A DNA stretch of 64,000 bases from Escherichia coli (GTDB taxonomy: Bacteria > Pseudomonadota > Gammaproteobacteria > Enterobacterales > Enterobacteriaceae): assembly GCF_048403405.1 (NCBI RefSeq), contig NZ_CP183129.1; one strand, 5' to 3'. Shown piece after piece: positions 35,118 to 53,587 of this stretch. Position 1 is the first letter of the stretch; the number at the start of each line of letters is the position of its first letter. Below the pieces are notes generated by a model that worked only from the letters and a program-made list of their open reading frames with translations, was not told the origin of the DNA and did not search any database. The translations under genes were made by a program, and so were the position numbers.

Positions 35118-36971
35118 TTATGATGATGCCGGTGCATTTATCTCCAGCACCAGACTTTCTATCTCAACGCCATACGCTGCATTTTTGGTAATATCCGTCA
35201 GCGTCAGCGCATTCAGCCCCAGTGTCAGACTGTCTTTTATGACCTGGAATGCCGGGCCAGCCACTCCATTCAGTTTCGGAGTAACCGTGGCACTGCCGGC
35301 GGTGAACACCAGCTCCAGCGTCTGCCAGTCGTTACTGTAATTCCCGAACTCGCCCAACTTTGTGTTTCCTGCTTTCTTGTGATGCATCAGATTCAGTTTG
35401 CCGTCTGTGGTCTGGGTGAAGAACGACATCAGGAACGGGTTACCAGTCCCGGTCATCGCCACGACGTCAGGTAACGCTACATCGGTATACAGATAAATTC
35501 CCAGACCGAACTGATTGTTGGTCAGTGCGCCTGACAGTCGAAACTTACAGCTCAGTCTGCCACCCCGTGTCAGCAGGGAGACTGCGTCATCCACCGGGCG
35601 CGTCAGGGACCAGGCTTTATTGCTCTGCTTGGTGATCTTAAATACACCATCTGACAACTGAATTCCGCCATTCTTAATGCTCCAGCCCTGCGCAGCAGCG
35701 TCTCCGGCTGTCGGCAACAGGGAGATTGTGCGTATGGATGCATCTTCAGACGGCCCCGATGGCGTGTCGCCGCCGGGCGAGAGTTTGATTTCCGGTGCCT
35801 TACCACTAATGAAGGCTAAGGTGCGACCGGCTACGTTCAGAATAGCAGTTGCCATACGATCGGGAATAATGCCACGACGCGCCCATGAGCTGAAATGCGT
35901 CGGGCGATTTGATGATACCCAGTTTTTGTTCGTTCGGGATGCCGAACCGTAATAACCAGACCCGACAATATCAGGATCTTCTGACGGGTTGTTTGTCGGT
36001 GTATTAACTCCGCTACCATCGGTCATAAAGGGAACAAAATAAATCTGCTGGGATTCTTTACCTTTATATGCACCATATACCACTTCATATTGCGTACCGT
36101 GTTCTTGTTTCCACGCGTATGTCGTGTCGCCACAAATCCAGGGGACTGATGCCGGACTTCCACCGTGACACTGCGCTGCCAGCCCGGCAAGGTCAGCACG
36201 GAACTGCTGTACCATTGCAAGAAATGCTGCTGGCTGCTGGGCGTAACTGGCATTCGTCATATCGAATTCCCCCTGCATCCAGCATATCGCCAGCAAAACG
36301 TTTTTCGGGTTTTTCTGCAATGCTGCCTTCGTGCGGAAAAGCAGATCCTGATATAACGGCTTACCCACTCCCCAGCGAGCCGAATCCTGACTGGCTCCCG
36401 TGGACTCGCTGAATGTCCCCTCCGTGCCCTGGGTGAATGCCGAACCACCACGACAGCATGGTACCAGCAGGATCCCCGCATTATTAGGGATATACGGAAG
36501 CAGTTTTTTGGCAATATGTAAGCCCTGTCCGACACAGCCGTACTGCCCTTTGCTCAGGTCAGCCCGGGGATGGTTAATCGTACTCATATCCTGAACATCA
36601 TGCAGACAATGGTCAGCAGGAATGATGTCGTTAAATACGCATACTTCACCACCGGGAGTCACTGTGTTACGACGGGCCAGTTGCTTAATGCGCGGATGGG
36701 GCGCATCGTATGAATCCGGAAGCGGAAGCCCTTCACCGTAAGCCATGGCATTGGATTGCCCGGCCAGTACGATGACGTAGTACCACTCCGGCTCAGTTGC
36801 ACCACTGACGACCACATCACCTTCTGCTGCAATCGCCTGCATCAGGGTATAAGGGGTTATGGCCACCGGACTACCAAACGGCTGCCAGCCCTCCTTCAGT
36901 TTTTGTGTCAGTCGTTTCGCAAGGTCTGACGGCGATGCCGCCCTGACCACGTCATAGTGTTTAAATGCCAT
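35118..36971 (-). CDS. nanS: Prophage sialate O-acetylesterase NanS-p-like (SGNH hydrolase)
   Basis: 617 aa; SGNH block I VLAGQSNAMAYG; sits upstream of the lysis genes as in Stx-type phages. Confidence 0.75.
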   Translation of the reverse strand: MAFKHYDVVRAASPSDLAKRLTQKLKEGWQPFGSPVAITPYTLMQAIAAEGDVVVSGATEPEWYYVIVLAGQSNAMAYGEGLPLPDSYDAPHPRIKQLARRNTVTPGGEVCVFNDIIPADHCLHDVQDMSTINHPRADLSKGQYGCVGQGLHIAKKLLPYIPNNAGILLVPCCRGGSAFTQGTEGTFSESTGASQDSARWGVGKPLYQDLLFRTKAALQKNPKNVLLAICWMQGEFDMTNASYAQQPAAFLAMVQQFRADLAGLAAQCHGGSPASVPWICGDTTYAWKQEHGTQYEVVYGAYKGKESQQIYFVPFMTDGSGVNTPTNNPSEDPDIVGSGYYGSASRTNKNWVSSNRPTHFSSWARRGIIPDRMATAILNVAGRTLAFISGKAPEIKLSPGGDTPSGPSEDASIRTISLLPTAGDAAAQGWSIKNGGIQLSDGVFKITKQSNKAWSLTRPVDDAVSLLTRGGRLSCKFRLSGALTNNQFGLGIYLYTDVALPDVVAMTGTGNPFLMSFFTQTTDGKLNLMHHKKAGNTKLGEFGNYSNDWQTLELVFTAGSATVTPKLNGVAGPAFQVIKDSLTLGLNALTLTDITKNAAYGVEIESLVLEINAPASS

Positions 36972-37199
36972 GAATCCTCCCGGGCGGGATAATGTTGTGA
37001 GTCAGATAAGGAGCAGGCTGAAGTCCGGAAGTTACAGGACAATGGCAGAAGGGAGACTACAGCCCGCAATTCGAAAAAGACCGCGCAGTTGCGCAGAGTG
37101 ATTACTATGGGGTATTATTCGCCAGCTGAAATATTACTTCACGTTTTATTGTTTATTCCTTGCCGCCCGCGTCTCCCAGCGCGGGCTTTTTTTGTCCAT

Positions 37200-37440
37200 A
37201 AGAAAGCCCCTCCGGAGAGGGGCTAAAGCCGCGTATCTGTATCATCATGCACATGGTGCCGGGTGCCTCCCGGTGAGTTCAGCCCGGTGCCACTAAACCC
37301 GCGTCATTCTCGTTTTGATAATCAGAGATTATACCGTCACCAGTCGCCCCTCCGCTCAGGGGGATTCACCATGCGAAATTTTTTTAACAAATGCCCAGTC
37401 TGACAGGCAACTGTCAACTTACTGAATTGTGAGCAACATA
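37200..37440. repeat. Structured repeat copy 1 (~240 bp) in the tRNA-to-nanS spacer
   Basis: Shares blocks aaagcccctccggagaggggct, catggtgccgggtgcctcccggtga, gcccctccgc.cagggggattcaccatgc, ctgaattgtgag with copy 2. Confidence 0.75.
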
Positions 37441-37685
37441 GCATTTAACGGGGAACCTGTTTTCTGCAGTAAAAAGGCCCACCGGAGCGGATGGGCCTGG
37501 AAGGATAGCGGTCATGTGATGCCGGTTTCCCGGTAACTCAGCACCGGTATCTGAGTCAACGTTTTCTCTACTGGGTCATTTCCGATACGCCCTGCCTGCT
37601 GACAGGCTTTCATCACATCTGAAAATATAGCACCCTGACTGATACTGTAGTACCTAAGGTTCCAGAAACTGTGATGTATCCGGCA

Positions 37686-37905
37686 CAGAAAAGCCCCTCC
37701 GGAGAGGGGCTGGAGAGTGGCGCTATGTGCCATTGCATGGTGCCGGGTGCCTCCCGGTGAATTCAGTACCAGCACCTGAATCCGCGATTATCCCATATAC
37801 CTACTCGCTGATTGCCCCTCCGCACAGGGGGATTCACCATGCCAGTTTCTTTTAACAAACTCCCCGCAAACCAGACAACAGTCAACCGCCTGAATTGTGA
37901 GACAT
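37686..37905. repeat. Structured repeat copy 2 (~220 bp)
   Basis: Paralogous to 37200-37440 with the same conserved hairpins. Confidence 0.75.
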
Positions 37906-37946
37906 TTAAAAAAAAGCCCGCAAAAGCGAGCCAGGGAAAATAAGTG

Positions 37947-38023
37947 TGGCGCGTTGTACTGGATTCGAACCAGTGACCGATTGCTTAGAAGGCAATTGCT
38001 CTGTCCGGCTGAGCTAACAACGC
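37947..38023 (-). tRNA. argO: tRNA-Arg (anticodon TCT)
   Basis: Clean cloverleaf read by hand: acceptor gcgttgt/acaacgc, D-stem gctc/gagc, anticodon loop cttctaa, T-loop ttcgaat, 3' CCA encoded. Confidence 0.85.
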
Positions 38024-38245: not shown

Positions 38246-38572
38246 TCAAACGATTAAATCCTGAACTTCCCTGACTGTCTGCTCAAAACGTCCGGTCTCC
38301 AGTTCAACGCCAATCGCACGACGCCCGAGCGCCAGTGCCGCTTTTACCGTTGAACCTGAGCCCATAAAAAAATCTGCAACCAGGTCTCCCGGACGACTGC
38401 TTGCGCTGATTATCTGCTGCAGCATTTCTGCCGGTTTTTCGCACGGATGTTTCCCGGGATAGAACTGCACCGGTTTATGCGTCCAGACATCGGTATACGG
38501 CACCTGCGCTGTCACGCCAAAATACCGCCGCAGTCGGCATTCACAACCACAAGCGTGTTTAACGTACTGCAC
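38246..38572 (-). pseudogene. 3' remnant of a beta-class N6/N4 DNA methyltransferase gene
   Basis: 108 aa ORF holds only the C-terminal SAM-binding motif (DLVADFFMGSGSTVKAA...IGVE); no DPPY-containing N-terminal part and no room for it upstream. Confidence 0.65.
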
Positions 38573-38682: not shown

Positions 38683-39426
38683 CTAATCTGACGTCACACG
38701 CACCATTATACTTACTAAAGAAAAGTCATCATCAGGTCCGGCTCTCTCTATACGACGCAAAATACCATTAGAAAACTTCTGACTATTACTCATAGTATTT
38801 GATGTAAATCTGGGGCGTTTTTCCCAAACGTTATGAACTCCATCAGACATGATACACAGATGATACAACCCGTTAATACCAGGCAAATCTTTCCACGGGA
38901 TAAAATCACAGTCGTATTCCATATCAACATTTGAGGCTATGGCAGTCGTTAAGATATTTTTTCCCGGTTTATTCTTCAAATCTCTGGGTTTAAAAATATT
39001 CTGATCAATTAACATCTGATGTCTGGTATCGTCCTTCGTCAATTGATATGCTTTCTTTTCTCCAATGCAATACAAGCGACAATCACCAATATGACCAATA
39101 ATAATTCCGCTATCACAAACATAACAAAAGGTAAGTGTAGTAGCAGCTTTATCGAACTCATCATTAACTTCAGCTAACGACATAACTTTTCGCTTAACTT
39201 CAGCAAATACATTCGGAACTGCATCAAAAGATAAACTTGTCAATGCTGAAAGTTCAGCGATTGCCATGGATGAAGCATAACTGGCACCAGAGTATGAACC
39301 TACACCATCAGCTACGGCAAATAAGATGCCGTCTCCTACAATTTTTGGAGGAAGCAATGAATCTTCGTTGACCCTACCTGGTTCTTTTGGATACGAGAAT
39401 GATGAAGTCGCTATCAGCTGAATCAT
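38683..39426 (-). CDS. PP2C-family (PPM) Ser/Thr protein phosphatase
   Basis: 247 aa; PPM motifs NEDS, AVADGVGS, GDCRLY, IMSDGVHNV, DDDFSLV; AAGGAG RBS; AT-rich. Confidence 0.8.
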   Translation of the reverse strand: MIQLIATSSFSYPKEPGRVNEDSLLPPKIVGDGILFAVADGVGSYSGASYASSMAIAELSALTSLSFDAVPNVFAEVKRKVMSLAEVNDEFDKAATTLTFCYVCDSGIIIGHIGDCRLYCIGEKKAYQLTKDDTRHQMLIDQNIFKPRDLKNKPGKNILTTAIASNVDMEYDCDFIPWKDLPGINGLYHLCIMSDGVHNVWEKRPRFTSNTMSNSQKFSNGILRRIERAGPDDDFSLVSIMVRVTSD

Positions 39427-39529: not shown

Positions 39530-40186
39530 TTATTTTTTATCATCTAAATTTAAGTCTTCAATTAACCGTCCCACAGCATAAACATCAGTCTTAACTGAAT
39601 ACTCTGCATTATATAAAATCTCGGGAGCCATATATCTTGTACTTCCCATACGGGTACCGATCTCGGTCAATTTAGTGGTATCCCCTTCGGGATTCGTATC
39701 TTTTACCAGACCAAAATCAGACACCTTGTATGTTCCGTCGCTAAATCGCAAAACATTAAAGGGTTTTATATCTCTGTGTAAATAGCCTTTGGCATGGATG
39801 TAAGCTACACCATCTAATACCATTTTCACTATTGAAATTTTTTGATCTGTTGTAAGAAGGTTGTTCGTTATTTCGTGCTCAAGATCACATTCTGCTTTAT
39901 CCATAATGAACCATGGATTCTCAACAAACAAATCGCACAAATAAATAGGAACAATATTGCTATGTACGCAATGTGATTGATACACAACCTCCCTTTTAAA
40001 ACGCCTTCTAAACTGCTCTATTTGCGCCAAAAGCTCTGGTTTTTCGGGTGCTAAAACCTTTCTAGCATAATCCCCGCATTCACCTTTATTGAGGTTGTAA
40101 ACCTTAACGTGTTCAACAAAGCCAAATGCCCCTCTTCCAATCAACTGAATTCGTTTTATAAAGTAATTACCGTGCTGTTCTTCCAT
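39530..40186 (-). CDS. Hanks-type Ser/Thr protein kinase (compact, ~219 aa)
   Basis: G-loop GRGAFGFV, Lys in YARKVL, catalytic loop HRDIKPFN, SDFG, MAPE, TDVYAVG; start set at MEEQ with GGTGAG RBS (track ORF extends to 40261); AT-rich. Confidence 0.8.
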   Translation of the reverse strand: MEEQHGNYFIKRIQLIGRGAFGFVEHVKVYNLNKGECGDYARKVLAPEKPELLAQIEQFRRRFKREVVYQSHCVHSNIVPIYLCDLFVENPWFIMDKAECDLEHEITNNLLTTDQKISIVKMVLDGVAYIHAKGYLHRDIKPFNVLRFSDGTYKVSDFGLVKDTNPEGDTTKLTEIGTRMGSTRYMAPEILYNAEYSVKTDVYAVGRLIEDLNLDDKK

Positions 40187-40260
40187 TAAGCTCACCGACC
40201 TAAATTGTAACAATATCCATATATTACAACTACAGATAAAAAGGTCCACAGAGTTAAGCA

Positions 40261-40290
40261 AAAAACCCGCACATTTGAGCGGGTTTATAC
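40261..40290 (-). terminator. tR'-like intrinsic terminator downstream of the late promoter
   Basis: On the late strand cccgctcaaatgtgcggg followed by TTTTTT. Confidence 0.65.
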
Positions 40291-45001: not shown

Positions 45002-45157
45002 TTACTCCTCAGGTTCGTAAGCTGTGAAGACAGCGACCTCCGTCTGGCCGGTTCGGATTCGTACCTCGCAGAGGTCTTTCCTCGTTACCAGTGCCGTCAC
45101 AATGACGGTTAAACAGATGACGATCAGGGCGATTAACATCGCCTTTTGCTGCTTCAT
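45002..45157 (-). CDS. hokD: Hok/Gef-family type I toxin (HokD/RelF-like, 51 aa)
   Basis: MKQQKAMLIALIVICLTVIVTALVTRKDLCEVRIRTGQTEVAVFTAYEPEE matches HokD; track ORF has an in-frame upstream extension. Confidence 0.85.
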   Translation of the reverse strand: MKQQKAMLIALIVICLTVIVTALVTRKDLCEVRIRTGQTEVAVFTAYEPEE

Positions 45158-45394
45158 AGCCTGCTTCCCCTTGCCTTTCGGCACGTAAGAGGCTAACCTA
45201 CATTTGTGAGACATAGATTGGGCCTCAGATTAATGTTAAGCGTCTTGCAGGACGCGAAATGTTAACTGGGGCTTTTCTCTATCTGCCTTTCAGTGTTCAT
45301 GCCTGAGACAGATAGCCTCAAGCACCCGCAGCCATTCTACTTAACTCACGTCACCTCGCCAATATGAAATCAATCAGAAAGGTGATCCATAAAA

Positions 45395-53529: not shown

Positions 53530-53587
53530 TTTCTGGTGACATTTGGCGGTATCAGTTTTACTCCGTGACTGCTCTGCCGCCCTTTTT
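53530..53587 (+). ncRNA. dicF: DicF small RNA (cell-division inhibitor sRNA)
   Basis: tttctggtgacatttggcggtatcagttttactccgtgactgctctgccgccc + T-run matches the remembered DicF sequence; lies upstream of dicB. Confidence 0.7.

Follow-up and report, generated by a model that had tools for sequence, protein, structure and literature searches.

The late region of a prophage in a 64-kb stretch of Escherichia coli DNA (the window, to whose full length all coordinates refer) contains a 975-bp interval, 36972-37946, that lies between the last gene of a tRNA cluster and the sialate esterase gene nanS-p. Within this interval, two paralogous repeats were identified as members of the STnc100 RNA family (Rfam RF02076), with a diverged third paralogue between them and a short convergent element on the plus strand. 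The functional strand of the repeats is the minus strand, as it is for Q, the tRNAs, nanS-p and the lysis genes. We refer to the downstream STnc100 unit as copy 1, to the upstream unit as copy 2 and to the paralogue between them as the middle unit. The parts of the array, with P1 to P4 denoting the helices of the RNAs, were as follows:

37843..37901 (minus strand): copy 2 promoter region, with TTGACT at 37885-37880 and the extended -10-like box TGTTAAAA at 37857-37850
37685..37842 (minus strand): copy 2 small RNA (sRNA), supported by RF02076 and the minimum-energy fold; P1, 37842-37835 with 37742-37735; P2, 37831-37815; pseudoknot, 37812-37806 with 37774-37768; P3, 37783-37776 with 37766-37759; P4, 37757-37743; terminator, 37710-37693
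37470..37632 (minus strand): middle unit, the diverged third paralogue (RNA ~37617-37470), with the extended -10 box TGCTATATT at 37632-37624, a P4-like CCGG-GAAA-CCGG at 37533-37522 and a terminator at 37498-37475
37375..37433 (minus strand): copy 1 promoter region, with TTGACA at 37417-37412 and the extended -10-like box TGTTAAAA at 37389-37382
37197..37374 (minus strand): copy 1 sRNA, supported by RF02076 and the fold, positional orthologue of EcOnc27/sRNA103; P1, 37374-37367 with 37258-37251; P2, 37363-37347; pseudoknot, 37343-37338 with 37289-37284; P3, 37300-37292 with 37283-37275; P4, 37273-37259; terminator, 37223-37206
37126..37193 (plus strand): convergent short sRNA candidate, with a terminator at 37165-37186 followed by seven T (terminator scan)
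37089-37118 (plus strand): weak promoter-like TTGCGC-18-TATTAT of the convergent candidate
37075..37096 (minus strand): terminator-like hairpin CTGCGCAACTGCGCGG with a T-run, stem 37096-37081, ahead of the nanS-p leader

A preliminary description of this DNA, made from its letters alone, had placed two paralogous elements at 37200-37440 and 37686-37905, had read them as structured RNAs rather than junk, and had suggested an Rfam scan, a search for covariation among prophage relatives and a comparison with the known prophage sRNAs of enterohaemorrhagic E. coli (EHEC). The scan assigned both repeats to STnc100, far above the curated gathering threshold of the covariance model (47 bits) and over its full length (model positions 1-206 in each case), with 165.4 bits for copy 1 (E = 6e-38; 37403-37194, minus strand) and 136.3 bits for copy 2 (E = 2e-30; 37871-37681, minus strand). 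The repeat units, 37433-37194 and 37901-37681, are where they had been placed and are 70.6% identical across 235 nucleotides (nt). All three of the shared GC-rich hairpins were located in both copies, namely gcccctctccggaggggc at 37223-37206 and 37710-37693, ccggg-aggca-cccgg at 37273-37259 and 37757-37743, and a CCCCC...GGGGG hairpin after GCATGGTGAAT, and the TTGACA-like boxes are those listed above. The count of two elements was incomplete, having missed the third paralogue at ~37642-37469; the plus-strand element at ~37126-37193 and the terminator-like hairpin at 37096-37081 had escaped notice as well. Published STnc_100 PCR primers (PMC12370729) match copy 2 exactly.

The minimum-energy folds of copy 1 and copy 2 each yielded the STnc100 consensus, in which P1 encloses P2, P3 and P4 and is followed by a terminator, and the location, the late region of a lambdoid prophage in an enterobacterium, is also that of the family, with Q, the tRNAs, nanS-p, holin and lysozyme genes flanking the units on the same strand. 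The 5' domain of ~125 nt is made up of the four helices around a junction; a variable linker and the intrinsic terminator follow, and both the folds and the comparison of the copies indicate linkers of 24-28 mostly unpaired nt. Between the two copies, identity was 97% for the P1 5' strand, the P1/P2 junction (J1/2) and P2, 100% for P4 and the P1 3' strand, 88% for the terminator, 71% for the promoter block and 64% for P3, where the changes are compensated. It amounted to 17% for the segment just after P2 (J2/3) and 18% for the pre-terminator linker. The common scaffold, combined with two hypervariable segments, suggests that the paralogues differ in specificity. The repeats belong to an already known family and novelty is low, while function is still poorly defined; the small additions made here are the tandem three-unit arrangement, the middle paralogue below the family threshold and the pseudoknot.

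Relatives of the core were collected from viral contigs by two pattern scans, each anchored on a different side of it, which gave 247 loci. The 3'-side-anchored scan contributed 166 unique units, 101 unique cores and 42 sequence types, and helix covariation was counted on an alignment of 26 types. In these 26 relatives P1 and P3 were each 88.5% paired, with changes on both sides in five of eight pairs in P1 and seven of eight in P3. The covariation score of 0.296 compares with 0.140 for shuffles, none of which (0/500) reached it, and with values of at most 0.13 when the partners were slid against each other. P4 was nearly invariant, being identical in 63 of 74 units even with the search anchored on the opposite side; the near-invariant elements of the core are GGUGAAU, the P2 loop, GCG and the P4 sequence CCGGGAGGCACCCGG.

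These data bear on the reading that the interval is junk, consisting of remnants of a deleted coding sequence or of chance GC-rich hairpins. A RefSeq pseudogene fragment ("hypothetical protein") antisense to copy 2 could be taken in its favor, but it is opposed by the covariance-model E-values, by the covariation in P1, P3 and the pseudoknot described below, by the conservation of whole units in thousands of prophages and by the orthologue transcripts documented in the literature. The E-values and the covariation effectively refute this reading, whose probability we consider negligible, and the earlier proposal of structured RNAs is borne out by the scores, by the helices that fold in both copies and by their covariation in relatives.

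Covariation among the relatives was also found for a pseudoknot that pairs J2/3 with the P3 loop. This loop is matched by a complementary segment 1-4 nt after P2, and both strands covary, as in the pairs AUCAGCA/UGCUGAU, CUGGUG/CACCGG, AAGGUUG/CAACCUU, ACCAGUUA/UAACUGGU and CUAGAC/GUCUAG. At least 6 bp were formed with the own partner in 49 of 55 distinct combinations compared to 18% with foreign partners, and none of 5000 permutations reached the observed mean. This register-free comparison of own and foreign partners replaced a count on a MAFFT alignment, in which the strand shifts by 1-4 nt and only 38.5% of the cells were paired. The pseudoknot is absent from the structure line printed by Rfam for STnc100, and the RNAalifold consensus in a 2026 preprint lacks it (bioRxiv 10.64898/2026.05.13.724894). 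The 5' domain, a four-way junction locked by a covarying pseudoknot, is possibly new in this respect.

The middle unit scored 30.1 bits against RF02076 at 37642-37469, below the 47-bit threshold, and P1, P2, P3, P4 and the pseudoknot could each be placed manually on its sequence. Full-length versions are present in 670 of 5426 E. coli genomes, as two alleles ~85% alike that both keep the extended -10 box TGCTATATT, P3, the P4-like CCGG-GAAA-CCGG and the terminator. P1 has 8 bp in the window allele and one C-A mismatch in the other. The allele differences cluster in P2, where each allele still forms a 5-bp hairpin in a shifted register, and the single change in the P3 loop (G/A) preserves the pairing with the segment after P2. 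We read the middle unit, from this pattern of allelic change, as a probably functional, diverged paralogue and not as decay.

Each STnc100 copy also contains a tiny open reading frame (ORF) that the preliminary description had reported. MVNPPERRGDW, with 11 codons, is indeed present in copy 1, whereas the ORF of the upstream copy has 25 codons and not 13. In favor of small-protein genes encoding MVNPPERRGDW and MVNPPVRRGNQRV... are the ATG at the start of the ORF in both copies, which would lie 2 nt from the 5' end of a near-leaderless mRNA if transcription starts at the G of GCAUGG, and the ribosome footprints on some of the copies in strain EDL933, with ribosome-coverage values of up to 3.2 (PMC5331693). 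Other EDL933 copies, however, are almost free of footprints, the AUG is located inside helix P1 and a Shine-Dalgarno sequence is absent. Moreover, the ATG is not conserved among the units of the 3'-side-anchored search, 113 of 143 of which have GCAT while the others have GT, GC, CA or other bases (GTG, TGC and CAG are among the replacements), and compensating swaps in P2 (CCCCC/GGGGG, GCGGC/GCACGC and CCUUUC/GAAAGG) rewrite the peptide. Because the ATG is replaced, the P2 swaps rewrite the peptide and the ORF lengths differ, the conservation is explained by RNA pairing rather than by coding. As judged from these sequence comparisons the ORF is very unlikely to be coding, and units that exist as small-protein genes are scarcely credible.

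Around the array, the late genes on the minus strand follow the order Q, Ser/Thr kinase, PP2C phosphatase, truncated methyltransferase, three tRNAs, the interval, nanS-p, holin, lysozyme and Rz. The window is 100% identical to the chromosome of E. coli ML35, in which RefSeq annotates the locus likewise. The boundaries relevant to the array are:

41028-40333 (minus strand): Q
38196-37947 (minus strand): tRNA-Ile2(cat), tRNA-Arg(tcg) and tRNA-Arg(tct), an ileZ/argN/argO-like cluster
37909..37932 (minus strand): intrinsic terminator ending the tRNA cluster, stem 37932-37915 followed by a T-run (terminator scan)
35118..36971 (minus strand): nanS-p, a SASA-family sialate O-acetylesterase gene and the downstream boundary of the interval (ORF list; RefSeq annotation in ML35, where the locus is identical)

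Between Q and the tRNAs, the Ser/Thr protein kinase gene occupies 39530-40261 and the PP2C phosphatase gene 38683-39426 (both minus strand); the latter is followed at ~38246-38572 (minus strand) by the methyltransferase fragment, which is without its N-terminus.

Terminators are unusually dense in this region, with 10 terminator-like sites in 1.35 kb compared to 1.5 expected from shuffles, and the terminator scan of the array region returned five on the minus strand and one on the plus strand. The last minus-strand hairpin, at 37075-37096, is kept in prophage Sp5 of strain Sakai and in an Stx2a phage and could gate nanS-p expression in lysogens. The presence of five minus-strand terminator-like hairpins in ~860 bp between the tRNAs and nanS-p, inside the Q-dependent late operon and with the last of them shared with Sp5, would also be compatible with an insulator array that silences nanS-p and the lysis genes in a lysogen without Q and produces the RNAs as by-products. 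Such an insulator would need neither a 125-nt core whose helices covary and which has a pseudoknot and invariant loops nor conserved promoter-like boxes upstream of each unit, and the core occurs elsewhere without terminators; we consider it decidedly improbable.

The preliminary description had recognized the layout of an Stx phage without stx and had assigned the repeats to the stx slot. The layout was correct according to the ORF list, the RefSeq annotation of the identical ML35 locus and the comparison with Sp5, and no stx gene was found in the late region in the ORF list or that annotation. In Sp5 the order is tRNAs, stx2A, stx2B, STnc100 (207.7 bits), AsxR on the opposite strand, the conserved hairpin and nanS-p. 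The alignment of the window with Sp5 extends from the start of copy 1 to nanS-p, except at the position of AsxR, where the window has a different short plus-strand element, and copy 1 is for this reason the positional orthologue of EcOnc27 (sRNA103). Since the Sp5 orthologue follows stx2B, only copy 2 and the middle unit fill the interval taken up by stx2AB in Sp5, whereas copy 1 is a constant neighbor of the slot. The copy 1 segment is 92% identical to the stretch from stx2B to nanS-p of an Stx2a phage, its promoter region is nearly identical to the one upstream of STnc100/EcOnc27 in Sp5, and copy 2 shares 99.6% identity with the only copy in an stx-less prophage of O157:H7. Besides these correspondences, the copies of the Stx2 phages Sp5 and 933W share with the window the helices and the place in the late region, and the Sp5 copy also the flanks of copy 1. 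The differences are that Sp5 has one unit instead of three in tandem, that J2/3 and the pre-terminator linker of its copy differ from those of copy 1 and that the middle unit of the window, unlike the Sp5 copy, is below the STnc100 threshold.

Convergent dyads of Hfq-binding sRNAs between the late promoter and the lysis genes have been described in at least eight Sakai prophages (Sy and Tree), including AsxR/EcOnc27 and AgvB/EcOnc06 (Tree 2014; Sy and Tree 2021). The window likewise has 37374-37197 (minus strand) facing 37126-37193 (plus strand), with terminators at 37224-37205 (minus strand) and 37165-37186 (plus strand) that face each other, and the plus-strand candidate has a fold z-score of -3.0. 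Identity with AsxR or AgvB was rejected for this element: their models (RF02703/RF02702), which include a conserved 3' region of ~42 nt, gave no match in 36960-37960 even at E up to 10, while the AsxR model scored 88 bits in Sp5. On the other hand, 49 of 52 nt are identical to E2348C_1409.E2348C_1408.IGR, a candidate from the mapping of RNA interactions through ligation and sequencing (RIL-seq) in enteropathogenic E. coli (EPEC). The element is a candidate dyad partner by position that lies outside the AsxR/AgvB family. Compared to the published dyads, the one in the window differs in this short partner and in the two further STnc100-type units upstream.

The arrangement is not restricted to this prophage. 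At least 80% of its 975 bp are carried by 352 of 5426 complete E. coli genomes, it is also found in phage PhiR5_2 at 76-78% identity, and the three-unit order recurs in another prophage context that is followed by iraM. The first 120 viral-contig loci retrieved contained 11 adjacent unit pairs with a spacing of 467-483 bp. The tandem arrangement may have arisen by cassette insertion through recombination between prophages and not by local duplication.

Each unit looks like a self-contained sRNA gene consisting of an extended -10 box, the ~125-nt 5' domain, the linker and an intrinsic terminator. In the alignment, the promoter block is kept at the start of every E. coli-type unit, and its invariant part TTTGTTAAAA reads as an extended -10 (TGtTAAAA). 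We infer that this putative promoter would start each unit at the G of GCAUGGUG; because the RNA-seq 5' end of PasD2, a relative from EPEC, maps to this G, +1 is placed at 37374 in copy 1 and 37842 in copy 2. A canonical -35/-10 promoter built on the TTGACA box was rejected, as the 24 nt to TTAAAA are the wrong spacing and the extended -10 fits better. An inverted repeat, TGACAG-ttgc-CTGTCA at 37417-37400 (minus strand), overlaps the TTGACA box of copy 1 and is present in Sp5 and absent from copy 2; it might serve as an operator or, with a transcription start further upstream, belong to a 5' leader hairpin.

STnc100, named in Salmonella, corresponds to EcOnc27 of EHEC, which was detected by Hfq crosslinking (Hfq-CRAC) and Northern blot (PMC4104026, PMC7873438), and to sRNA103 of EDL933, where transcriptome reads cover all 11 copies and a Northern blot verified one of them (PMC5331693). 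One copy is located 75 nt downstream of stx2B, and the RNA has been found in outer-membrane vesicles of Shiga toxin-producing E. coli (PMC12370729). In EPEC, PasD1/2 were seen on Northern blots, and RIL-seq provided Hfq-bound targets for them (PMC8550237); PasD is a distant relative of STnc100 (bioRxiv 10.64898/2026.05.13.724894). PasD1/PasD2 of EPEC E2348/69 (EcOnc13 in EHEC) resemble the units in the window in their position just upstream of a sialate esterase gene and in the 5' sequence GCAUGGUGAAUCC, and PasD2 scored 41 bits against the STnc100 model. They differ in P4, in the 3' tail with the seed UGUGAG and the terminator GGCUGCGC, and in being dispersed instead of tandem (same preprint). 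The PasD probe sequence is absent from the window, and the units did not show the UGUGAG seed and terminator that define PasD.

Taken together, the interval is very probably a late-strand array of sRNA genes composed of two STnc100 members, the diverged paralogue between them and the convergent plus-strand candidate. In the lysogen, host RNA polymerase would transcribe each unit independently of Q and stop at the terminator of that unit, giving rise to stable RNAs of about 150-180 nt. These would bind Hfq, as published for EcOnc27 and PasD, and would act in trans via the variable single-stranded linker, so that the paralogues would have different targets; during lytic growth, Q-modified polymerase would read through the entire array into nanS-p and the lysis genes. 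The action through Hfq and the seed in the linker are proposed on the basis of published orthologue data and not of data from this locus.

Several observations weigh against this interpretation. The evidence for expression comes from orthologues only and promoter and start site are predicted: a simple sigma-70 scan of the minus strand did not find a canonical promoter, and the Rfam model begins ~30 nt upstream of the proposed +1. The terminators are followed by interrupted U-tracts (UUUCUU, UUUUCUGU) that are not ideal for Hfq, and the fold-energy z-scores of the two copies are modest (-1.5 and -2.0), not decisive, for which reason thermodynamic stability was set aside as evidence and covariation used instead. 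Evidence for targets of STnc100 is limited to overexpression effects on fimZ and espA. Furthermore, a plain seed-pairing sRNA would not usually have a 5' domain that is large, invariant and pseudoknotted, and because the same domain occurs elsewhere without a terminator ahead of ORFs and tRNA genes, the model of a trans-acting seed may be incomplete.

Closer examination of these other contexts revealed that a terminator follows P4 at a distance of 11-68 nt in 82 of the 116 distinct 3' tails, while terminator-less cores precede ORFs with a Shine-Dalgarno sequence that encode TerB-like proteins (141-144 aa), small membrane proteins (41-43 aa) or a lipoprotein. One viral contig (L136, 340-1510, plus strand) has several STnc100 cores in the same orientation, of which two are followed after 5-6 nt by tRNA genes (Arg-tct and Ile2-cat), the gap being free of a terminator, and one precedes a 41-aa hydrophobic ORF by ~60 nt. 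A core of phage P1 is located at 70080-70199 of AF234172 (plus strand; 1881-2000 of L247), with one P4 mismatch and a different P2, in the C1-controlled ban operon between tRNA-Thr and tciA; it is unannotated in the P1 record. Rfam recognizes many of the diverged cores as STnc100, often only over model positions 31-147, and did not recognize the tciA-leader subtype at threshold. A strict coupling of the core to tRNA genes was rejected, as a tRNA gene on the same strand within 1 kb upstream was found for 125 of 255 cores, mostly reflecting shared lambdoid synteny, and the loci retrieved for many diverged types have none; the association exists but is partial.

With a conserved pseudoknotted core and a variable 3' part behind it, each unit has a pattern typical of riboswitches, and the array might instead act in cis, with the 5' domain sensing a ligand or protein and the terminators serving as expression platforms that gate nanS-p and the lysis genes. 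What would be gated is transcription from the sRNA promoters or unmodified pR' transcripts. The covariation of P1, P3 and the pseudoknot and the near-invariant junction and loop nucleotides are as expected of an aptamer, and the terminator-less cores directly before tciA/TerB-like, small membrane protein and lipoprotein ORFs, with the ban operon of P1 as an example, occupy the place of a leader. In copy 1, the P2 3' strand GGAGGGGC can even pair with the 5' half of the terminator, an alternative that appears in the ensemble centroid. However, this pairing was found in copy 1 only, copy 2 being without an alternative fold, and relatives with unrelated terminators keep the same P2, which is not the pattern of mutually exclusive aptamer and platform. 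Furthermore, a ligand or binding protein is unreported, Rfam riboswitch models gave no match, Q-modified polymerase would ignore these terminators in lytic growth and the orthologues accumulate as discrete Hfq-bound RNAs according to the literature. We regard both the sensing leader array and this form of gating as unlikely. A likeness to motifs of cobalamin, FMN or SAM riboswitches (GGUGAA.UCC, CCGGGAGGCACC) was dropped after no such Rfam family matched.

The ~125-nt 5' domain could still be an autonomous RNA module that binds a ligand or protein, or that is a tRNA-like substrate for processing or a decoy, and as such more than a scaffold for an Hfq-dependent seed, but we consider this doubtful. 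The invariance of the pseudoknotted core, and its occurrence as a leader and beside tRNA genes, nonetheless make some other or further function conceivable. Its topology is that of a cloverleaf, in which P1 closes three hairpins and the P4 3' strand runs straight into the P1 3' strand, comparable to the T arm and acceptor stem of tRNA. If the domain were such a module, the tandem copies by the stx slot would represent three sensors or decoys with different specificity loops. The pseudoknot, the phage P1 core and the tRNA-adjacent cores provide concrete material for testing the domain.

As an sRNA gene array, the locus can be compared to OmrA/OmrB, PrrF1/PrrF2 and the Qrr set, which are likewise neighboring duplicates with a shared scaffold and a short variable region and whose duplication is thought to widen or split the target set. 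Those RNAs are ~80-110 nt long with simple hairpins and conserved seeds, while in the window a large pseudoknotted domain is conserved and the presumed seeds differ. SreA/SreB of Listeria and EutX/Rli55 consist of a complex aptamer-like 5' domain followed by a terminator, and the stable terminated RNA is able to act in trans. The units in the window have a similar plan of domain and terminator, but they match no Rfam riboswitch model and a switching structure is not family-wide.

The sRNA slot adjacent to stx is clinically relevant: in a machine-learning study, the genomic features that best predicted haemolytic uraemic syndrome were two variants overlapping the orthologous STnc100/EcOnc27 after stx2a, one single-nucleotide polymorphism and one single-base deletion (PMC12711010). 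The present locus shows that this slot can hold stacked paralogues with one scaffold and two short differing segments, and because the paralogues share the scaffold and differ in these segments, the array is a natural set of specificity variants for target mapping.

The units merit annotation as non-coding RNA genes. The only RefSeq feature inside the interval in the identical ML35 locus is the pseudogene fragment mentioned above, assigned by the RefSeq annotation pipeline PGAP to 37727-37852 (plus strand; 4095-4220 of L001) without a non-coding RNA label; it is probably a member of a spurious ORF family seeded by the conserved RNA. An 87-aa ORF at 37512-37775 (minus strand) passes through the copy 2 terminator, and in the stx-less O157 prophage the sequence beyond the equivalent of this terminator differs from the window. 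Further Rfam matches above threshold in the window were IS009 at 7671-7869 (minus strand, 225 bits), the sok antitoxin RNA at 45152-45327 (minus strand, 120 bits) and DicF at 53531-53582 (plus strand, 77 bits).

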